NCBI GenBank assembly: GCA_000004985.1
Contig: GG738846.1
Origin: Naegleria gruberi
Lineage: Eukaryota
Reading direction: 5' to 3' (one strand)
Length of the DNA: 64,000 nt
This document shows positions 1-60,100 of this stretch, one piece after another (the first letter of the stretch is position 1; each line of letters begins with the position of its first letter). The translations under genes and the position numbers were made by a program. Under the pieces are notes generated by a model that worked only from the letters and a program-made list of their open reading frames with translations, was not told the origin of the DNA and ran no database searches.

Positions 1-1053
1 CCAGAATACTTGAACTTTATCAAGGGTATTGTTGATTCTGAAGATTTGCCATTGAACATTTCCAGAGAACATTTGCAACAAAACAAGATCATGAAGGTTA
101 TTAGAAAGAATTTGGTCAAGAAGTGTATTGAAATGTTCTCTGAAATTTCTGAAAATAAGGAAGATTGGAAGTCATTCTATGAAGCCTTTGGAAAGAACTT
201 AAAGTTGGGTATTCACGAAGATTCTCAAAACAGACAAAAGTTGGCTGAATTGTTGAGATTCTCCTCATCCACTAGTGGTGAAGATTGGACTTCATTCAAG
301 GAATATGTTGAACGTATGAAGGAAGGTCAAGAAGACATTTACTACATTACTGGTGAAAGCAAGAAGGCTGTTGCCAACTCTCCATTCATTGAAAAGTGTG
401 CCAAGAAGGGTATTGAAGTCTTGTACTTGACTGACCCAATTGATGAATACATGGTCCAACAATTGAAGGAATTCGATGGTAAAAAGTTGGTTTGTGTTAC
501 CAAGGAAGGTTTAAAGTTGCCAGAAACTGAAGAAGAAAAGAAGAAGAAGGAAGAATTGAAGGCCTCATTCGAAGCTTTGTGCAAGTTGATGAAGGACATT
601 TTGGGTGATAAGGTTGAAAAGGTTGTCGTTTCTGACAGACTTGGTGATTCTCCATGTTGTTTGGTTACTGGTGAATATGGTTGGTCATCAAACATGGAAC
701 GTATCATGAAGGCTCAAGCTTTGAAGGATAACTCAATGGCTGCTTACATGGTTTCCAAGAAGACTATGGAAATTAACCCAGAAAACTCAATTGTCAATGA
801 ATTGAGAAAGAAGGCTGAAGCTAACAAGGCTGACAAGACTTTGAGAGATTTGGTCTGGTTGTTGTTCGACATTTCATTGTTGACTTCTGGTTTCTCATTG
901 GAAGAACCATCAACCTTTGCTGGTAGAATCCACAGAATGATCAAGCTTGGTTTGAGCATTGATGAAGATGAAATCGTCACTGATGCTGAAGTCAAGAAGG
1001 AAGAAGTTGCTGAAGAACCAGCTGCTGAATCCTTGATGGAAGATGTCGATTAA
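1..1053 (+). CDS. HSP90: Cytosolic HSP90, C-terminal ~350 aa. Partial: the 5' end is upstream of the window. The reading frame is open from nt 1 (PEYLNFIKG...).
   Basis: The translation matches the Hsp90 middle and C-terminal domains, including [28 protein letters not shown]-like and TSGFSLEEP, and ends in MEDVD. Codon usage is strongly biased (TTG, AAG, AGA, CCA, GGT, GTC). Confidence 0.95.
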
Positions 1054-17744: not shown

Positions 17745-19084
17745 TTATTGTTGTTGACTTGATCCAGGAATAATTCCGGTAGATCCCATAGTGTTTGGAA
17801 CAGAAACACCTCCAACAGAGGCACCTGATTGTGGATCCTCAGCTCTCTTCTTATCCAGTATGACCCAATCATATTCGTAATCCATAACAAACTTTTGACG
17901 AACAAATAAATCACGGAATAACTTTCTTAAATATTGATAATCTGGCTTATCTTCAAATCCTAGAGAACGAGCATAATTGAGATAAGTGGCAAATTCAGGT
18001 GGATAACCTTCACACAAAGTCTTGATACCAGTACTAGTCTTTTTCTCACAAATTCTGTTATACTTTTCCAATTTAGTTCTGGCCTTCAATCCTTGCCATG
18101 GCAATGATCCACGATTAAAGTACATAAAGACATAACCCAAAGATTCCAAATCATCTCTTCTTGATTGTTCGATACCCAAGTGGTTGTTAATACTGGCATA
18201 ACGAGCAGTACCAGTCAAATGTTTGTTATCACGGTATGGAATGTGTACGTGCTTTGAGTCTCTGTACTTCTTGGCCAAACCGTAATCGATGAGGTAGACA
18301 ATTTCTGACTTTTTAGCAGGTCCCATCAAAAAGTTGTCTGGTTTAATATCTCTGTGGATAAAGTTCTTGGCATGCAAGTATTCTACACGTTTCAACATTT
18401 GATCAGCCAACATTAAAACAGTCTTTAAACTGAATTTACGACCACAACGGTTGAATTGTTCTTCGAGAGAGGAACCGAGAAGATCCATAACCATTACGTT
18501 GAAATCTCCTTCGATACCATACCATTTAACCTTTGGAATGCCCACAGCTTCCTCTTCCAGATAGCCAGAACGTCAAAATTATCATGATAATGGGCAGTTT
18601 AAATTTTTGAAGAGTTTGGTGTTGTTAAATATGAATGTATTGTGTTATTCATCATAACAAGTCATAGTAGTAGAAGTAAATATTACCGAGAGTAGTACAA
18701 TTGTAAGAATAGATGACGAGATTGTATACAAAAATGTTGTTATACAATATTGATGGTTGATGTAGTCATCACATCAATACAACAGAATAATAAATTTAAA
18801 ATATTATGGAATAGAGATGATAAATTCAAAGTATTAAAGGACAGGTGTTGGGCTTGTAACCAGCGTTAAAGTAAATGAAACATACCTTTCTTTGAGAGGT
18901 TCAAGAGCTTGAGCAAACGAGCTTCATAGAGAAGTTGTGGATGTTTAGCTTTTCTGTGTTCCAATTTTACAGCAACCTTTTCCAAGGTTTGCTTGTTTGT
19001 AGCAATGAAAATTTCACCAAAGGCTCCACTTCCAATCTTTTTACCGAGAACAAACTTGTCTCCAACTCTATGTTCAATAGACAT
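17745..19084 (-). CDS. CK1: Casein kinase I (CK1). Two exons: 19084-18886, then ~18553 or 18547 down to 17745.
   Basis: Exon 1 has the glycine loop and beta3 lysine ([13 protein letters not shown]...VAVKLE...[12 protein letters not shown]). Exon 2 carries the whole CK1 catalytic core ([50 protein letters not shown]). A GTATGT donor follows ...LSKK+g. The two candidate acceptors (ggaAG| or gaggaAG|) are both in phase. Confidence 0.9.
18548..18885 (-). other. CK1 intron (~332-338 nt), GTATGT donor. The acceptor is ambiguous between 18554 and 18548.
   Basis: GTATGT lies directly after exon 1. Both candidate AG acceptors preserve the CK1 frame ([10 protein letters not shown]...). Confidence 0.6.
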
Positions 19085-20077
19085 GTTGTTGTTGTTGTTG
19101 TTATTGTATTTTTAAAACGTTTTTTTTAAAACTTTGAAAGTCTCCCCTAAAGTGGTGAATGAATAAATTCTCGAAAGTGCAATGTCTTCCTTCTGCAAGT
19201 AGTTGATGATCTAAACTTTTGGCGACAAAAGAAAAGCAAGTAGTTGCCGTATTTTTTAGTGAGAGGTGATGAAAACTGGTTCAAGGTTCAAGAGCACTCA
19301 AATCGTCAATGGCATGATTCATTGAAAAATTTAATTGGCGGGAAATCTTATAATGATGGGACATGTAAGAAAGAACTCTACAGTAGTATTAGTGGTGGTG
19401 CTTACAACATTATGTAACAATTATTAATATTAGGATGAATACTTTTGCAGGTATATGTTGATAATTTATCACATTCGAATTTCCTTAATACAAATATTAA
19501 TTATTAATATTCATAGACTAACATTAATAGGAACATAAAGTGTTGAAGGGAGTGGAGGTCAAGGGATCAATATATAGTATTTAGACTTTCGTTTATAATT
19601 GAACGTCATCCTAATTCCAAAGTGAGTTCATGAAAGGGGGTGTCGAAGATTTACCATTGGGAATGCCTCTAAAAAACCAAGTATTGTGAAAAAGATGGGA
19701 GAGATTGGCTTTCCAACAAGTTCAGAAGAACTTGAAAAGAGAATTGTACCAATTGGATACTATGGAAACTTCTTTCTTTTGCTTTCTATGCTCTTATATT
19801 GGAAAAGCTTTATTACTTAACTTTAAAACTTGTGGAATACCTTGGTGAAGAATCCTAACTTTACACCAACAAAACAATCAAGTTTTAACATGCACAAACT
19901 CTCTCTCTGTTTAAAGGAAAAGCTGTGAATTATCAGAATCTCAATCATTGATGCAGATAAGGTGGAGAGTTCCAATTTCTTTAATTGTTCAAAGACTAAG
20001 GTGTTTTACAATGAATTTTCAAATGTTAAATGTGATTATAGATCTCAATTAATCAACTTTCATTACAAGTTGACAAA

Positions 20078-20770
20078 ATGAATGAAGAAAGTTATTCGAA
20101 TCCATTACTAGCTCTCCAAACTAAACTTGATACCGTACAACATTACAAACCATTTCAAGAAATTAAAAATTCAATCTCAATTAAACAAATTGATTGGGAA
20201 AAGGAATGTTTAAACATTATCATTTGTGGAGAAGGAGCTGTTGGAAAAACAACATTAATTCAAAATTATTTTATGGAGAAATTCCTGTCTTTTACAATGA
20301 TGGAGTTTATAATGAAAACTTGATTAAATATATGGATGTGGATACAAGGAAACATGTCAAGGCATTGGTGTTGTGGATACTGAAGGTCAAGAGTAAGTTG
20401 GTTGAAAATTTTCCAATTGACCAGTGTGAGAAAATTAGAGATTATGATCGATTGAGACCTCTTACATATCCAGAAACAGATTTGTTTTGTATTTGTTTCA
20501 AGAATACGATCTAGGTCTTTCAATAAGATTCCATCTCGGTGGTTTCCAGAAATTAATCATCACTTGCCAAATTCTCCAATTGTTTTGGTGGCCTGCAAGA
20601 TTGACTTGTCAAGAGATGAAGAAATGAAACGAATGAGATATAGATATTTTGATTCTCCAGTTAAACATGAAGATGCTATTAAAATGGCCGAGAATATTGG
20701 AGCAGTAACATATATTGAAACATCAGCTACAGGAGGGAAATATTTCAGATTTTGCAGAGATTATTACTAA
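20078..20770 (+). pseudogene. Rho/Rac-family small GTPase. One real 46-nt intron (20393-20438), plus three 1-nt frame breaks, so the sequence is either a pseudogene or carries homopolymer errors. There is no CAAX box.
   Basis: The P-loop GEGAVGKT is in frame A. FYGEIPVFYNDG...KHVKALVLW is in frame B (break at T-run ~20269-72). DTEGQE is in frame C (break at GG 20375-76). After GTAAGT...TTAG, DYDRLRPLTYPETDLFCICF is back in frame B. SRIRSRSFNKIPSRWFPEINHHLPNSPIVLVACKIDL...ETSAT is in frame A (break at TTT ~20495-97). The reconstructed protein aligns along its length with Rac1. Confidence 0.7.
20393..20438 (+). other. Intron of the Rho GTPase gene (46 nt), GTAAGT...ATTAG, phase 2.
   Basis: Splicing joins DTEGQ-E to DYDRLRPL exactly as in Rac/Rho (GQEDYDRLRPLSYP). 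Confidence 0.75.
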
Positions 20771-20927
20771 ATCATATACCATGTTTAGAGATGCCAATTA
20801 TCCAAAGTCAAAGTCAACGAAGAAGAAGAAGAAATGTGCTATTTGTTAGATTTCAACAATCCAAAATCTCTTCAATGTTGATTTTTGAATTTTCTTCTCC
20901 AATTAATAATCATCATCATGATTACTA

Positions 20928-23900
20928 CTAATTAATGGGTTGATAGTATTGAGGAAAGGTTTTTTTTGATTCATAAAGTAAATATTGCAATTGTCGAGAG
21001 ATAGACTCAAAGGATGGTCGACTATTTGGATCCTCACTCCAACACAATTTCATCAAATCCAAATACTTATCCGAAATGGCAACAAGAGACGAGGTAGAGA
21101 AGGAATTATTGAATGGCAGTACAAATTCCTCAAGCCACAATATTTCCTCCTCTCTATTGGTGAATGGAATAACTGGTCTTTCTCCATTCAATACATGAAA
21201 GAGAATGTTGAATTCATTCATTTTTGAATTGTTTGGTATGAATTTGTAAACTTTTTTGGAATTGTAATTCAAATATGGAGCTTCTTCAAAAAATAATTCC
21301 CACATGATAATTCCAAATGAATAAACGTCTACTTTTGTGGTATATTTTGGAGAGTCATTAATCATCTCAATTGCAATGTAACATGTACTGCCTATTTGTT
21401 TGGTAGCTCCAAGACTTGTAGACAAGACCTTACTGAGACCAAAATCACATACCCTAGCATTGCCTCCATCTGAGAGAAGTATATTTCCTGGTTTTAAATC
21501 TCTATTAAATAAATACATAAATTCATATCAGAAAGATTACAAAATTGAGAAACAAACCTGTGAACTATTTGTTGAGAGTGTAAATATGACATTCCAGTGG
21601 CAACATCAACAAGAATACTCAGTTTTTGAGCAAGAGTCAAAGATTCCTTTCCTATTTTACAATTATAAATCAACTTGTCGAGACTTCCTCTAGGATAATA
21701 TTCCACAATCATAAACTTTCTATTGTCAGAGATACAGACACCATATAATTTAACAATGGAAGGATGATCTAACATGTTCAGTACAGCAACTTCTCTTTCA
21801 AATTCTTCATCTTGCAAGGTATCATCTGTTTTCAAAGATTTCAATGCGACATCTTTTGATTTCCACTTTCCAAGCCAAATAGTTCCATTTCCTCCTTCTC
21901 CAATCTTGTTAATTATTTCAATATCTTCCAATGGAATAATCAATCGTGACTTTTTCACACTTGATGAGCTCGAATGATTCAAAAGCAATGGTGTAGACAT
22001 ATTGGAAGAGCTACTCACAAAGAATAATTGTCTATTATTAATCTTTCTCTCCATCATTTCCTCTGCCTTTAGTTTCTTATCAAATAGAGATGCCTTCTTA
22101 TAGACATTTCTGAAACATCTCACCAATAAGAAAATCGCTACTAACAACACAACAGTCAAGAGCATACCAAAAATTACAGAGACGGGTATGACTGTGTATA
22201 AAATGATTGGATTGAAACTATCATTTTCTAAACATACAAATACAGAGTGGAGAGGATTTTTCAAGCTCATACCTTTTGGACAATCAAGAATATTGAAAAT
22301 GAAATTCATTTGAAAAGATTCCAAGATCATGGTTGCATTCACCTTTTTCTTTTGAACATTTAAATTCAAAGAGAGGTCATTAATTATGTTAGTATGCTCT
22401 TGAGTTTGGTAGAGAATATTTGCATCTGTTGAACAATGAATTGTTGCAGGTTGACTCAAGAATTTCAAACGTTCTCCATTGTTGATTATGAAATCAGAAA
22501 ATATGATTGAGGAAATAACTTGTCCTGGATAAATGTCAATTTCCAAAACAGTTTCAGCTCCCACATTGTATTTCACAATGTTCTCAGTTGAATATTCAAT
22601 TTCCATGTGAAAAGTTGCATTAGATATTGCAAATGCAAATGTAGGTCCATAATTGTAAGCAACATTATTAGAAATTATAGCACGTTGAAAATCGATTTGT
22701 TTCGTTGCATAGACACATCCTCCAGAATTATACGCCAAATTATTACGGCAAGCACCAAATAATTTGTTTCTTCCAACATCTCTCTCAATTTCCAAATAGA
22801 GAGCTCCTCCACTATTCTTACTAGTATTATTATCAAATACAAATGCACAATTATCTAAAACGTAATTAGTTCCTATTTCCTTTCTATAGTATAGAGCTCC
22901 TCCATTATTCAATGCAGTGTTTTGAATCATGTCTGTAAACAAACTATATATTGATTCTCCATAAAAGAAGACAGCACCTCCATTTCTGGCTGTATTATTG
23001 GAGAAGGTAAATCCCTCAAATGATAAAGTGCTATATCCATAGGCATAGAGAGTTCCATCTCCATCATTGATATTTGAATCGGCATGACCAATTGCTATTC
23101 TGATATAGGAACCCTCTGAAAAATCATTCACTGACCTCATCATTCCATAACCATTCTCAAAACTACAGGCAGACATGAAAATAGTAGATACCATATCAGT
23201 GACTATTGGCATGGTGTTGCAATTTTTAAAGCGAGTTCTCACGAGTCTAAGGGAATAAGTTGCTGAAACTGATAATATTGGTTCATCTGTATTGAACTTT
23301 GTCGTTTCAAAATTGGAATCCTGAATCAATATTTGGTCTGCATTATTAACACTAAGGTATAATGAATCTTTTGCAATGAGACTATCAATGGTAGATGCTC
23401 CACAATAACGTAGAATAATTCTAGAAATGAGAAGAGTGTTGGAATTCTTGATCATTACATTATCAAATCTAAAGAGTTCTAATGTAGAATTATTCAATAT
23501 TGAATTCTCTATATGAAATAATTGAGAGGTAACCACAATATCAGTATCTGAATCCAAATGATATTTAAAGAAACTATTCAAAAATTCAGTGTTTAACATT
23601 TTGACATATTCAGAACTCATTCCATACATTTCACAATCAATAATCTTACTCTCCTTTACCAAAAGTCTATTAATTGAATTGAGTGCAGAATTTGCAAGTA
23701 CTGATCCACTCAGAGTAATATCACCATCAAATACTCTATATCTGTACATGCTAACAAAACTACCAATTTTTGAATCAATGAATCGAATGGTTTTGTACTT
23801 TTGAATGTATCTGAAATTATCCAAAGAAACATTCAAGAAGGTAATTGCCTGAGCAGACACACCACTCAAATCAAAGCCAGCCCAACTATAGGTAACATTA

Positions 23901-24424
23901 CTATTTTCCTCTGCATTAAACAATTCGAAAAACAATTCATTATAGGAATAGGAAGAGACTCCAACAGCAGGAAAGGGAAATACTCGACGATTCTCCCTAT
24001 CCATTATGAGTCTGATAATAACTGAATCTGCTGGTGCCTTCTTTTTATGCACTTGTTTCAAGAAGGCATCCACTTGTGCCAGGTTGACACATGGATTTTC
24101 AATGGTGGTACAATTCTTTGGATCCGTGGTAGGATTACTCAGTGCAGATGTAGATGATCGACTACTACTAGTAGTATGAACAGCAATCGGCTTGACATAT
24201 AAAACAGTTCCATTCACTGCTATATTATTATATATTTGAAAGATATTCTCGGAGGGCCATGAATAATTATAATAATAATATTCAGCATGATTATCATTAG
24301 CAACAATACTAGGATCATTATATTTACATTCTACCCAAAGATTGTGTGAAAAGGTGCAGAACAGTAAAATCTGCACAAAAAACAGAAACCTTGAGCGGGT
24401 AATTGATTGTTGTGGTTTGCACAT
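20928..24424 (-). CDS. Receptor-like transmembrane protein kinase (~1146 aa): signal peptide, ectodomain with PMP-type (GGA) repeats predicted to form a beta-helix, one TM helix, and a TKL-like kinase domain. Two exons: 24424-21558 and 21501-20928.
   Basis: The start is likely at M11 (aaaaaagaaaATGtgc), giving the signal peptide MCKPQQSITRSRFLFFVQILLFCTF. The ectodomain repeats N-x-[AS]-x-x-N-GGA-[LV]-[FY] (NGGAVFF, NGGALYY, SGGALYL, SGGCVYA). The TM helix is PVSVIFGMLLTVVLLVAIFLLV. The kinase has GEGGNG...VALKSL...HR|DLKPGNILL...DFG, and the HRD motif is split by the intron. Confidence 0.85.
21502..21557 (-). other. Intron in the receptor kinase (56 nt), GTTTGTT...TTAATAG, phase 2.
   Basis: It joins ...QQIVH-R|DLKPGNILL and restores the catalytic-loop HRD motif. 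Confidence 0.8.
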
Positions 24425-24561
24425 TTTCTTTTTTGATGGGCAATTGATTTTCAACTTGGAAATAGTGGTGTTAGGTTAGTGTGCCTTATTCTTGAGGCCA
24501 ATGGGCAATGAATTTAATTCACACAGAAATGAACTGCAACTTCTGAATTGAATATTGATAT

Positions 24562-36261: not shown

Positions 36262-39188
36262 ATGAAAAAAACTGCAAACACAAATTATCACGAGAATATG
36301 AACACCCAAAAATTGTTCATTTTCCTTCTCGTATTCCTTTCAGTTGTTACACTTCAAGAAGTAACAGCATCCTTCATCAACTCGAAGAATATCTACACGT
36401 TCGGCTACATTTACTACTCTGGTTTTTCACCACTAGCCATCACACCTGATACTAGCACTCCAATTGAAAATGATCTACTACCCAAATATCTATTCAACGG
36501 CACCGAATCATGGAAATTAATAACAGGAAATGAAACAACCACCACTACTATGAACACTTCTGTTAAACTGCAACAAATAGTTACGGGCATGTCGGTGATG
36601 TTTTACGTGTTGGAATATTTCAATAGTGATACGAATAGTTCTCTTGGGCAAAGAATTCTCGTCTCTGGAAGTAATATGAATGGACAGGGAGCTGTTATCA
36701 AACCACCCTATATCATGTCTACTCCAGAATTAATTTACATCTATTCGAAAGATGGACAAGCTTTTAATCCCTTCTCTAATTCGAATAGGATTATTCACAT
36801 GGCTTGTTTGTATTCATGTTTGATCGTGTCCAGTGATGGTCATGTTCGTTACCATTATGGACTGTTGGAAGTTGGTACTGGAATTTGGAATGTTCGATTT
36901 AGTGCAGTTTCGTATAACGATCCAGATAATGGTCAATTGTTAACTGGTGTGAAATATGTACATGCTACAATTGGTGGATATTATGGTTGTGAAACAATGT
37001 TTGCAGTTACTAATTATGGTCATGTTTTTAGTAGTGGATGTCATAATTCTGGATTGAGAGGAACTTCCTCTTCCTATTCAGATACGAGTGTTAATTTAAT
37101 TCCATCATTGAGGAATATTACAACAGTTTCGGTTGGTTTCTTGGATGGAAATGGAGAGACTGGCAAGACAGCTGCTGGAGCTATTGATGTGAATGGAGTT
37201 TTGTGGACTTGGGGAAGTAATTTTAATGGAATGTTGGGTTGGAATTCGACACTAAATGTTAGTGAAACAGCTCAACCTGTCACCTTAATTCAAAACCCAG
37301 TAACACAAGTTTCATTTGGATTTTCACATGCCATTGTAATGACAAATAATGGAGATGTTTTGTGTTTTGGAGGAAATCTTTACCAGCAATGTGATTTCAA
37401 TCTTCTGATCCATCAATCATGGTCCCTAAAAAAATTGACAATGTTACAAATTCACTTTACTGCACTGCCAAGGAATACATTTCAATTTGCATTGTAATAG
37501 ATGGTACTGTTAAATCATGGGGAGTTTCTTTGAATTCGTATAAAAATCTGGGTCATGCTAGTAATCCAGTTTTTGACACGGTCAACTTGGGACAATCGAT
37601 AACTTCCTCAGTTTACTTGTCAGGAATTCATGGCATGGCAATCACTACAACAGAAAAGGTTAAAGTTTGGGGAAGTAATAATAATGGGATGTTAACACTT
37701 GGAGATGAATACATGATTAGATATCCTAGAAAATTAACAACTTTTGGACTTTCTTATTCGAATGTTTCGGTTGTGATTGCCAAATCAGGAAATGCTTGTT
37801 CATTCTTATTGACTGCTTTGGGGAATGATAGTTCTACCAATGTATTAGAATATTGGGGAGGTTGCAATAACGGTCTTGGATTTTCAGTAACTGCCAATAC
37901 TCCAACACAAGCACTCACATCATTGACATCTAAAAAAGTTATTGACCTAGATATGAAAGGAGAGTTTGCAGTAGCTCTTGTTGAGAATGGGGATGTCTAT
38001 GCTTGGGGAAAGGGAGATTATTACTCTTTTGGCTCTTCATCAAGTAGTAATCCAACTCCTACGTTAATCTATTCGAATGTTAAACTAATCACAGCTGCCT
38101 CTTCCAATACGTATCTATTATTACAGAATGGAACACTATTGGGTATTGGTGATAATACCTATGATGAATTAGGTGTCACTGGACCGACTAGTATTTCAAA
38201 TTTCATTGCATTGAATACTTCAATCATTGATTCGAATAATGAAGTCATTGTTGACATTAAGGGAGGTACACAAACACTCTTTGTCTTGACAGATAAGGGA
38301 AATGTGTACGGTATTGGTTTAAATACTGGAGGTAATAAGTATCTTTCCCCTAGTGCAACTTCCAAATATTCAACTTTTATTCGAATCAATGGAAATGTCA
38401 AAGTTAGAAAGATGTTTGTTGGATTTTACAGTGCTACTGTATTTGTTTCAACAAGTGGAGTACCCTACTATTTCGATGGAACACCAATCAAATTGAATCT
38501 TCCATCAGATGATTCGTATTTGGTTGACTCATTCATGTATTCAAAAAGACACTACTTTATTACCAAAAAAGGGAATGTTTACACATCTGGTTCCAATGAT
38601 TATTATCAGACTTCATACAGAAGTGGTTTTAATCCAGTTATTTCTGCTCCAACTCTCTACATGACAAAAGATTATTTTGATGGAGTACCATATATGGGAA
38701 TTGCTGGATCTTTGGTTGCCGGAATTATTACCAGAGAAGAATATACATGTTTTGGAGTGAATTCTACCGATTCAACTGTCTGCTCTTCTCGTGGTTATTG
38801 TTCTGGACCAGATTCTTGCACATGTGATGAAGGATATTATGGGTTGACCTGTGCCAATTTTTCCTGCAATTCAATTTCCTCATTCAATTCTTCAGTTTGC
38901 TCTGGAAGAGGAATTTGTTCTGGGCCTAATACTTGCTCTAATTGTACAAATTCTATTGGAAACAATTGTGAATATCCTATTTGTTATGGAACTTATTCGA
39001 ATAATGTTTCAGTTTGTAGTGGAAATGGATATTGCACATCAGTAGATACTTGTCAATGTAAATTTGGATTTTATGGAACTAAATGTGAATATAGAACGTG
39101 TTTTGGAGGTTCAGCATTGAATGGAGTTTTACCAAGACAGACAGTCGCCGATGTCTTTTGTAAAAACATTAACAAGCTATTGAAATAA
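36262..39188 (+). CDS. Secreted protein with RCC1-like beta-propeller repeats followed by C-terminal tenascin-type EGF repeats. A single-base frame break near 37396-37398 splits it into two track ORFs.
   Basis: It has a signal peptide (LFIFLLVFLSVVTLQEVTAS) and many G-x-V-x-x-WG-x-N-x-x-G-x-LG RCC1 motifs. The C-terminus carries four CxCxxGYxGxxC-type EGF units (CSGPDSCTCDEGYYGLTC...). Frame A ends ...LYQQCDF and frame B continues (Q)SSDPSIMVPKKIDNV.... A TTT-to-TTTT correction joins them, and the RCC1 periodicity is preserved across the break. Confidence 0.7.
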
Positions 39189-49246: not shown

Positions 49247-50150
49247 TTAGCAATAGCTCTTTGCAATAATAATGTAGTGAAGTTTGTTGTCAAATAAATA
49301 ATAATCCNNNNNNNNNNNNNNNNNNNNNNNNNNNNNNNNNNNNNNNNNNNNNNNNNNACAAGTACCCAAACTAATACCCAAATTGAACATACTTCCCAAT
49401 AATCCCATATATTTAGGGAATGGCATCAACTCGACAACATACACCGAAGAAACTGCAGTGAGGATCCCCCTTCCAAACCCAAAATGCATCTAAAGACAAT
49501 CAATGTAGAATATTGATATGATGCAGCAGCTCCAATTGATCCAATAATTGAAATTAAACAACTGAGAATGATGGATAACTTTCTACCGAGTACAGATCCT
49601 GTAAACATGGCAAACAAACATCCAAACAATCCACCAATAAAGATACTACTAGCAAACAATCCCTGTAATATAGTTGTATCAAGATTGAATGAACTATTAG
49701 TTGCAGTTTTGGTTGCATTTCCGTTCAGAGAGTTGTTAGAGCTCAAATCTCTGGAATCGTATAAGGATGTGGTCTTGATTTGCATACAATGACCAAAATG
49801 ATGATAATCAACCATTTTACCCAGGCTCATTGCATATGTTGCAACAGAGAGTAAACATTCAAGATTTGTCCATTGTCCCTTAGATATCCAATCATTGTTA
49901 TAGCCATAAGAATCCTCTCTTCTTAATGAATTATTAAGGGAAAGCAATTCAAAAGTGCTGAGTGAGGAGGAGCTGGTGTTTGTGGTTACTGGGGATGAAG
50001 ACGTATTGGAAGGGAAGAATGCTTGTGAGGCACTAATAAAAGCACCTCCAATCGTTCCTAAAGCATAGCCATATAATAAACCTCCGAGCAAGTTGGTAAG
50101 AATTAGACAAATTGCAAGAAAAACTCTCTTTGACTTGCTATTGTTTTATA
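49247..50150 (-). CDS. MFS sugar-transporter-like gene, N-terminal ~300 aa only. It is interrupted by the assembly gap at 49308-49357, and its first coding exon is probably upstream via a short intron.
   Basis: TM1 (KRVFLAICLILTNLLGGLLYGYALGTIGGAFI) is followed by a long glycosylated loop 1, then TM2-4 with GRK and R-x-I-LG-x-G motifs (SVLGRKLSIILS...FRCILGLEGG), then P-x-Y-x-x-E-l-x-P (VYVVELMPFPKYMG). The ORF is open upstream of the track start but has no ATG, so there is likely a TAG acceptor ~50134-50145. Confidence 0.55.
49308..49357. other. Assembly gap (50 N), size unknown.
   Basis: Run of N. Confidence 1.
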
Positions 50151-55548: not shown

Positions 55549-55598
55549 NNNNNNNNNNNNNNNNNNNNNNNNNNNNNNNNNNNNNNNNNNNNNNNNNN
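55549..55598. other. Assembly gap (50 N) between the inverted-repeat arms.
   Basis: Run of N. Confidence 1.
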
Positions 55599-57135: not shown

Positions 57136-60100
57136 ATGCCATCATCAAATAGCCAAGCAAATGATGCCTTCTCGGAGAAGGAGTTTCAAGTTTTTTTAAC
57201 TTCAACAAGGGATTGTTATGTGCAATTACCTCACGAATACGTTCTCTCCAATGCAGTATTGAATGAAAGCAAGGGGAAAATTCAAGTATTTAAAATTATA
57301 AATCATGATGATGATGATTATTTGTGTTGGAGTTGGCATACTCATCAGCAAGCTCCGAACAAGATTGGAATACCATCAACATTGGCTAAATGTTTGGAAA
57401 TTAATGAAAATGATAATATTACTATTAAATTATTGAAGGACGTGAAAATGTGTAAGAGTGTTTTTGTTAGACCTGAAACAATAGATGATTCGGAAATTTT
57501 GGAATTCAATCAAAATAGTATTGAAGAGGAGTTACTTTCACAAGTTAGAATTGCATACAGGGATATGAAATTCCCACTTTTTATCAATAATAATATTAGT
57601 ATTACATTAAATACATATCAATGTGGCAACGATGATAAGGATACCAATGTGTATATAATTGATAGTGGAACTGAATTAATTGTTGAAACTAAACATGAAA
57701 TTATTGATGAAGTTAAACAAGAAAAGAAAAAGTATTACATTAAATCGAAATTAGAAAAATTATCCACAATTGCAAATAGATTGGATTTGAAATATACTCA
57801 CGAGCAAATAGATGATGATAAATTTATTTATGTTTCCAAAGATATTGCCACTAAAATTGGACTTGTTAGTGGTGATTTAGTTCAAGTATTACATTTGAAT
57901 ATCATTAGAAAGAATATTATCAAGGATGAAACTGAACAAGCTGAAGAACAAAAGAATCCTCTTGATGCTTTGAAAGAATTTGAAGAAAAGAAGGAAAGAG
58001 TATGTTTTAATTAATAATTTCTCAATAATTTGATTTCTCTATCAATAATTTCAAAATCGATCAATTCAACTTTTAATAGAGAATAATATATGGAAGAGTA
58101 CACGTATTGAATGAGAAAGCAACAAGTGGATTGTGTAGCATGCCAACCATTTTTGTTGGAAAGCACTTGATATGGATGCTTGGAGCTGTTGAGCATTCTA
58201 CAGTTTATTTAAAGTACATAGAAGAGCCATTATATCCTAACTTTGTTCACAGTATTTATGTGAGACCAATATTGGATATGTTACCAAAGGACATTGAAGT
58301 ATCGATGGATAATTATCAAGAATTAACCAAGATATTTAGAGAGTGGATTTTGGAACGCAAGACCAATTCTCTCTTAACTGTTCCATCTATTGCTATGGCT
58401 CAGAGAAATGTAATTTACTTGAAAGGTTTTGGAAATGTGCTCGTCAGTATTAATGAATCAATTATTATTTCCTCAAAGAAGGAAGATGAGGATGAATACC
58501 AAACCTTTAGCGAATTTTTGAATAAGTCATCCGTTGAGAATTTATATCTACTCTTTGGAAGTGAAGCCTCCTATAATATTTCAATTGTGGAAGATCCTAT
58601 TGCTGTGGAACATAGACATGCTGTTTATTCTCAAGTACCTGATTTGTGTGAAATTACTGAAATATCAGAACAAGTTCAATTAATTTTAAACAGATTACAA
58701 GTTCAATACTCTCCAGAGGCTGTACCTTTCAAGAAGGAATTCAAATATTCAACTCACTCCAACTCGAACATTATCATTTCAGGCAATGTTGGTAATGGTA
58801 AAACTTACTATGCAAAGGCCCTGGCTAGACACTGTAATGTTTACACTATCTTTGTTTCATGTGCATCATTGGCTGGAGATAGAGCTGATACTCTCGGTTT
58901 GAAATTCAAGAGCTATGCACAAGAGGCCATCATGAATGCCCCCTCTCTCATCATTTTTGATGACATTGATTCAATTTGTCCTTTTGAGCAAGAAGAAGCC
59001 ATGCCAGATATTAATGTTAGAGTTGCTGCTTCAACATTTACTGAATTGTTGAGCACTCTATCTTTTTTCAGTACTAGTTATGAAAGAAATGTCAATGTTA
59101 TTGTCACATGTAAATCTCTGGATGAAACGTACGATTCTATTCAAAATTCAAAACTTTTCGAGCAAAACTTTTTAATCAGTGTACCAAACAGAGAGCAACG
59201 AAGAAAGATCTTCCAAAGATTCCTCACTAATAGACCAGACTTTTTCTCAGAAGCAGATGAAGACGTCTTTGATTTTTCACAATATAGTATGACAGAAGAA
59301 ACTTTGGATTACATTGTTGATAGGACTGAAAATTACTCTCCTCTCGATGTGAGAAATATGTTGGACAAGATGGTCAATGTCAAGTTACAAACTCTAGTGG
59401 AAGAAGGAAAGTATGAATCATTAGGTATTGACACTATTTTGACCATTCAAGAATTTACAAAGGCATCCAAAGACTTTATAACTCAATCCACAGAGGGAAT
59501 CAAGTTGATAAAGAGTACAACTTCCTTCTCAGATATTGGAGGTCTTCAAGATGTTAAAAACATTCTGAGAGAAACCTTCATTTTCCCAACCAAATATGCC
59601 TCACTCTTTGAGAATGCTCCAATCAAGTTACGTTCTGGCCTTCTCCTTTATGGACCACCTGGAAGTGGTAAGACTTTTATTGCAAGTGCCATTGCTAAGG
59701 AATGTGGATTGAATTTCATTTCCATTAAGGGACCAGAACTTTTGAACAAGTATGTTGGTGCGAGTGAACAAGCTGTCAGAGATGTTTTCATGCAAGCTGA
59801 ATCTGCAAAGCCGTGTATTATTTTCTTTGATGAATTTGATTCAATTGCTGCTCAAAGAGGTCACGACAATACTGGTGTTACAGATAGAGTTGTCAATCAA
59901 TTTTTATGTCAATTGGATGGTGTCGAATCTAGAAAGGGAGTTTATGTTTTGGCTGCCACATCTAGACCTGACTTGATTGATGCTGCCTTGTTGAGACCAG
60001 GTAGATTGGACAAGTCAGTTTGTTGTAATATTCCAACAGAGGAGGAAAGGCAAGATATTATGGAAGTCATTTGTTCCAAGCAATCCAATGTTCAAATAGG

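Follow-up and report, generated by a model that had tools for sequence, protein, structure and literature searches.

A divergent Rho-family GTPase gene of Naegleria gruberi interrupted by four frame breaks, a probable young pseudogene

Introduction

Atypical, GTPase-deficient Rho proteins such as Rnd and RhoH, and pseudoGTPases more generally, carry substitutions at catalytic or switch positions while keeping the CAAX tail, and the G4 motif of Rnd reads CKxD. Rnd and RhoH retain the switch-I Thr and are encoded by intact, expressed genes. Members of expanded Rho/Rac families may also be disabled, and a rac pseudogene of Dictyostelium is reportedly a case of a non-processed pseudogene in such a family. 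In Naegleria, Rho-family genes are mostly "accessory", i.e. they turn over between species (PMC9928731).

Here we describe a full-length, divergent Rac/Rho-type small GTPase gene of Naegleria gruberi whose reading frame is broken. It lies on the plus strand at 20078-20849 of a 64,000-nucleotide stretch of contig GG738846.1 (assembly GCA_000004985.1), referred to below as the window.

Results

A Rho-family gene spread over three reading frames

Three-frame translation of 20040-20900 revealed Rho-family peptides that are colinear across all three plus-strand frames over the whole of the gene (Table 1). The domain architecture is complete and in order, running from the P-loop through G3, switch II, G4, the Rho insert, G5 and alpha5 to the polybasic-CAAX tail, and a single canonical intron interrupts it. 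An earlier sequence-only reading had described GTPase coding spread over all three frames together with a 46-nt intron, and both are seen here. It let the gene end at 20770; the real end, at 20849, is reached past a frame break that had been missed. Splicing leaves no uninterrupted coding frame, as four breaks persist. Read without repair, the frame of the start codon meets a TGA at 20321-20323 after 81 codons. The resulting product would comprise the N-terminal extension and the P-loop only, and therefore no GTPase is made from the sequence as given.

Table 1. Features of the Rho-family locus and of other loci in the window. Frames are the window coordinate of the first codon base, modulo 3.
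Feature	Coordinates	Strand	Frame	Description
Segment a	20078-20272	+	2	M1...GEGAVGKTTLIQNYF (...LIQNYF); ATG, 45-aa N-terminal extension, P-loop
Break 1	20269-20272	+		T4 run; one base added gives ...NYF-Y-GEIPVF
Segment b	20272-20376	+	1	(Y)GEIPVFYNDGVYNENLIKYMDVDTRKHVKALVLW, spanning (Y)GEIPVF...KALVLW; divergent switch I and beta2-beta3
Break 2	20375-20376	+		GG common to the TGG (W) and GAT (D) codons; one base added gives LVLW-DTEGQE
Segment c	20376-20392	+	0	DTEGQ and the GA of the Glu codon; G3 motif
Intron	20393-20438	+		GTAAGT...AAAATTAG, 46 nt, phase 2; spliced product fits the family gap-free
Segment d	20439-20499	+	1	(E)DYDRLRPLTYPETDLFCICF, the latter from 20440; switch II and beta4
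Break 3	20496-20498	+		TTT; opposite shift, two bases added (retains CICF-SRIR) or one removed
Segment e	20498-20731	+	2	SRIRSRSFNKIPSRWFPEINHHLPNSPIVLVACKIDL (SRIRS..., G4 CKID), Rho insert SRDEEMKRMRYRYFDSP, ...AVTYIETSAT (G5)
Break 4	20732-20737	+		GGAGGGAAA near 20732, in GGAGGG(AAA); one base removed or two added
Segment f	20733-20849	+	0	EGNISDFAEIITKSYTMFRDANYPKSKSTKKKKKCAIC and TAG stop (20847-20849); alpha5, polybasic stretch, CAAX
Secreted RCC1-repeat/EGF gene	36262-39188	+		Break at TTT 37395-37397, one-base deficit
EFC49880	15321-16127	+		GenBank protein
EFC49881	33606-36092	+		GenBank protein (Vps53)
EFC49882	36262-37494	+		GenBank protein
Intron joining split ORFs	21557-21502			Consensus splice sites
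Intron joining split ORFs	58000-58079			Consensus splice sites
Intron joining split ORFs	12949-12907			Consensus splice sites
Intron joining split ORFs	41855-41802			Consensus splice sites

The repaired protein is a divergent Rho

Once the frame is repaired, the gene encodes a 243-aa protein that matches the Pfam Ras family (PF00071, E 1.6e-30) and whose best matches among solved structures are human Rac1 (E 1.6e-40) and RhoA, not Ras or Rab. It could be aligned over the whole domain with 14 Rho homologues, insert region and tail included, which bears out the earlier statement that it aligns over its whole length. With Rac1 as a tblastn query, segment d alone gave 80% identity (E 4e-7). The P-loop follows the G1 consensus GxxxxGK[ST] (GEGAVGKT, 20228-20251). 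The G3 motif DxxGQE is present as DTEGQE, with Glu in place of Ala59, and the adjoining DYDRLRPLxYPxTD is perfectly kept. In G4, read as CKID, the invariant Lys and Asp are kept and the first position is Cys; G5 reads ETSAT. The Rho insert SRDEEMKRMRYRYFDSP aligns nearly gap-free with Rho insert regions and differs in length by one residue from that of Rac1.

Switch I is rewritten: where Rac1 has YIPTVFDNY, the protein has YNDGVYNEN, with Gly at the position of Thr35. The absence of the switch-I Thr had been pointed out from the sequence and holds in the alignment with the homologues and Rac1, where YNDGVY takes the place of YIPTVF. We also sought IPTVF in the other frames of 20040-20900, and it is not encoded there.

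The protein had further been said to end in RDYY and to lack a CAAX box. This is incorrect, as a polybasic stretch and CAAX box (KSKSTKKKKKCAIC and stop, 20805-20849) lie in frame 0 and are reachable only via the fourth break; this tail, KKKKKCAIC followed by the stop, aligns with the family pattern KKKKCxIL. Its description as an atypical Rho stands on switch I (loss of the Thr) and G3 (DTEGQE).

To describe the overall divergence, columns kept in at least 12 of the 14 Rho homologues were taken as conserved (70 columns in total). The repaired protein retains 49 of them (70%), against 83-100% in most homologues. The divergence is uneven, with switch I rewritten and the adjoining DYDRLRPLxYPxTD perfect, and for this reason it looks old, selected and specific to certain regions, as would be expected of an atypical Rho, rather than the product of recent random decay.

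The intron separates G3 from switch II

Splicing of the intron (GTAAGT...ATTAG) yields DTEGQE joined to DYDRLRPLTYPETD (DYDRLRPL...) without any gap relative to the family. Elsewhere in the window, split ORFs are joined by introns of 43-160 nt that have GTAAGT, GTATGT or GTTTGT as donor and, in most cases, (A/T)TAG as acceptor, and the Rho intron is of the same type.

Frame 1 is open over 106 codons (20194-20511), straight through this intron, a misleading ORF that is devoid of G3. One could therefore read the gene with neither an intron nor break 2, LVLW continuing via ILKVKSKLVENFPIDQCEKIR into DYDRLRPL and three breaks being left, and the lack of any frame 1 stop across 20377-20439 agrees with such a structure. 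We consider it very unlikely. It deletes the G3 motif, whereas DTEGQE, in frame 0, fills precisely the interval from LVLW to a consensus GTAAGT donor, and use of the TAG acceptor gives a DTEGQE-DYDRLRPL junction that is gapless against every homologue. An open run of 21 codons is moreover not unusual by chance. The reading through 20393-20438 was dropped because G3 would be lost.

Four short-run breaks that cancel out

We simulated frame repairs of the gene. The additions of a T at break 1 and of a G at break 2 that had been suggested do restore the first two junctions. Translation and simulated repair give four breaks and not three, the last one within GGAGGGAAA. The suggested lengthening of TTT to TTTT near 20495 leaves the frame wrong, since this junction moves the opposite way. 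Two breaks hence correspond to one missing base each and the two others to one extra base or two missing bases, so that both directions are represented. The four shifts sum to zero: after splicing, the ATG and the CAAX box share a frame, an outcome expected by chance in 1 case out of 3. All four breaks fall inside a 461-bp span, which is less than one read length.

The runs at the breaks are 4, 2, 3 and 3 nt long, and the longest runs of the gene, A5 at 20165 and 20245, are unbroken. The breaks do sit at short runs, as the claim that all are at homopolymers had it, but this is weak evidence that is barely above chance in an AT-rich gene: a random interval of 6-8 nt in the Rho gene contains a run of at least 2 nt in ~90% of cases and one of at least 3 nt in 29-40%.

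Frame breaks are rare elsewhere in the window

To estimate the background, stop-to-stop ORFs were scored with a codon model trained on the window and every junction between neighbouring ORFs of the same strand was examined. Split ORFs were considered as candidate frameshifts and rejected in all cases but one, the RCC1/EGF gene, the other junctions being consensus introns (Table 1) or gene ends. The long ORFs of the window, ~43.8 kb in all, keep their frame across 225 runs of at least 5 nt and 67 runs of at least 6 nt. Given about one break per 43.8 kb of long ORFs as the background, a cluster of four in 772 nt has a Poisson probability of ~4e-9. A homopolymer-error process acting uniformly is therefore excluded, and only a local cause explains the cluster: either real mutations in a gene freed from selection, or poor sequence confined to this spot.

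In the RCC1/EGF gene the coding sequence passes from ...GNLYQQCDF (frame 1) to SSDPSIMVPKK... (frame 0), and the addition of one T produces an uninterrupted 963-aa protein with blades 51-59 aa apart. The public model EFC49882.1 (411 aa, ending at 37494) is the truncated upstream half of this gene. The only frame-compatible intron, of 110 nt (GTGATT...TAATAG), was rejected because it would delete a ~50-aa blade of the regular repeat. This break resembles those of the Rho gene in being a one-base deficit at a short T run on the same contig; unlike them it is single, in a gene of 963 codons at 36298-39188, whereas the Rho gene has four in 461 bp. It is compatible with an ordinary draft error rate or with a null allele.

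Relatives and public gene models

No match above 46% identity to the repaired protein was found in a protein search of 5.8 billion sequences. Seven of the nine simple ORFs of the window are identical to N. gruberi GenBank proteins, so the proteome of this species is in the database, and the flanking plus-strand genes bear consecutive identifiers (EFC49880 to EFC49882). Together with the 46% best match, this establishes that the Rho locus has no public protein model. When metagenomes were scanned for orthologs, all matches were generic Rho genes of 44-46% identity, and a tblastn search of the window with the repaired protein and Rac1 revealed no second Rho copy.

Two other genes of the window are of interest with respect to the databases. 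Positions 1-1050 (plus strand) encode the C-terminal 350 aa of a cytosolic HSP90 whose best match in the protein search has 78% identity despite the presence of the N. gruberi proteome; this HSP90 may be without a public model, or its model may differ. EFC50086.1 (16219-17277, minus strand) of N. gruberi clusters at 90% identity with P0166 and P0167, both ENA metagenome proteins. Organisms similar to N. gruberi are therefore present in environmental assemblies, which could give independent sequence.

Genomic neighbourhood

The Rho gene is flanked by two kinase genes of the minus strand. The first exon of a CK1-like kinase (17748-19111) appears to be joined by an intron of ~332-338 nt (18885 to 18554/18548), unusually long for the window. 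A receptor-like protein kinase of ~1180 aa (20931-24475) carries Chlamydia-PMP-type repeats in its N-terminal part, and its HRD motif is split by the 56-nt GTTTGT...TAATAG intron listed first among the introns joining split ORFs in Table 1. The divergent spacer between the CK1-like kinase and the Rho gene (19112-20077) measures 966 bp, most divergent spacers of the window being ~160-670 bp, and a six-frame reading of it by eye disclosed no recognisable coding remnant. No hits came from Rfam or tRNA scans of the window. Scaffold gaps, each a run of exactly 50 N, lie at 49308-49357 and 55549-55598 and show the assembly to be a draft.

Discussion

We propose that this locus is a young, non-processed (intron-retaining) and unannotated pseudogene of an already atypical Rho, a reading to which we assign a probability of about 0.6. 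Full-length homology to a functional family is present with the intron retained. The gene would first have encoded an atypical Rho, probably defective in the nucleotide switch or in hydrolysis, to judge from switch I and DTEGQE. After selection on it was lost, indels would have gathered as real mutations by replication slippage. The inactivation would be recent, given the absence of in-frame stops, the gene-like codon usage and the intact CAAX box, and the broken copy could be the null allele of one haplotype. Sequencing error and recent pseudogene, the two alternatives offered by the sequence-only reading, are the right pair, even though the breaks had been miscounted, one repair fails and the CAAX box is not missing.

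Possible, though on the unlikely side, is a local assembly or base-calling error, with an intact gene in the organism that encodes an atypical Rho with an N-terminal extension, no switch-I Thr, DTEGQE and a CAAX box. The peaks of short runs would have been under- or over-called in a Sanger patch of low coverage or low quality. Such an error would account for a gene that has no stops, gene-like codon usage and intact motifs including CAAX, all of which would also fit a very recent inactivation, and for breaks that are confined to less than the length of a single read. Poor Sanger read tails have errors in both directions, in line with the bidirectional shifts, and the assembly is a gapped draft in which the RCC1/EGF gene, at least, has a further single-base break, located at a T run. 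Yet the remaining contig is clean over 43.8 kb of ORFs with much longer homopolymers. The nearest scaffold gap lies 29 kb from the Rho gene and the kinase exon found 82 nt past the Rho stop is intact, two observations that count for a pseudogene. Coverage of the N. gruberi shotgun was reportedly roughly 8x, at which depth a stretch of 460 bp resting on one poor read would be very rare.

The chemistry is also relevant. Sanger sequencing has no systematic error at short homopolymers (2-4 nt), which speaks against the breaks being errors. The genome of N. gruberi NEG-M was obtained by this method (PMC9928731, Table 1), not by a homopolymer-sensitive chemistry, and this favours a pseudogene. The same reading is favoured by the clean neighbouring ORFs with their 225 runs of at least 5 nt, by breaks that shift the frame both ways, at short runs, while the A5 runs are intact, by the retention of only 49 of the 70 conserved columns and by the turnover of the Rho family in Naegleria.

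Several observations nevertheless count against a pseudogene. The repaired frame contains zero in-frame stops, when 6.3% of point substitutions would make one: the probability of finding none is 0.07 with ~40 substitutions alongside the four indels and ~0.5 (0.52) with ~10. This argument carries little weight if indels are common compared to substitutions, as is reported for some AT-rich protists. The repaired coding sequence has a coding score of 0.376 per codon, compared to a window median of 0.30, and nearly all catalytic and structural motifs survive along with the CAAX box. The shifts sum to zero, and the T-run break of the RCC1/EGF gene indicates that the assembly carries isolated errors or null alleles.

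That the sequence is correct and the gene functional would require recoding, with a full-length protein produced through programmed ribosomal frameshifting, transcriptional slippage or insertion/deletion RNA editing at four sites. The cancelling shifts and the stop-free repaired frame are what speaks for it, and we regard it as extremely unlikely. A slippery heptamer of the form X XXY YYZ is absent from all four sites (TAT TTT ATG, TTG TGG ATA, TGT TTC AAG and ACA GGA GGG), the shifts are divided equally between -1 and +1, and no motif is common to the four sites or shared with the RCC1/EGF break. Polymerase stuttering would need runs much longer than these 2-4 nt, and neither the protein search nor the metagenome scan found an ortholog with a conserved arrangement. 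The insertional editing reported in heteroloboseids (PMC5421314) is mitochondrial, which counts against recoding as well. A correct genome yielding a full-length, prenylated atypical Rho in a heterolobosean, by nuclear insertion/deletion editing or by multi-site recoding, is likewise extremely improbable.

The locus matters little beyond genome curation. It adds one more unannotated Rho-family locus, pseudogene or mis-assembled, to the N. gruberi inventory, and the analysis flags the truncated public model of the neighbouring RCC1/EGF gene. Should the gene be intact, it would encode a Rho without the switch-I Thr, and this candidate pseudoGTPase would hold modest interest for cytoskeletal signalling in Naegleria.

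Compared to the Rac/Rho subfamily, the locus shares, in colinear order, the P-loop, DxxGQE, DYDRLRPLxYPxTD, xKxD, the SA motif, an insert-length segment, alpha5 and the polybasic-CAAX tail, and it is ~40-46% identical to Rho proteins. It differs in an ORF broken four times, in the replacement of Thr35 and Pro34 (YNDGVY), in Glu at Ala59, in a G4 that begins with Cys, in the 45-aa N-terminal extension, in the 70% of conserved columns kept and, relative to Rac1 in the HMMER alignment, in three extra residues ahead of beta3. Set beside Rnd and RhoH, it would be comparable by analogy in its Ala59 and G4-Cys substitutions and its CAAX tail, a likeness that would not imply orthology; unlike them it has lost the Thr and its ORF is broken. 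As in non-processed Rho/Rac pseudogenes, the intron and the genomic context are kept and small indels disable the gene. Unlike in those pseudogenes, the searches found no close functional paralog or ortholog for the Naegleria locus (best match 46%), which suggests that a distinct old lineage was lost and not that a fresh duplicate is decaying. The locus is of an ordinary kind, a gene from a large family that is either disabled or mis-assembled.
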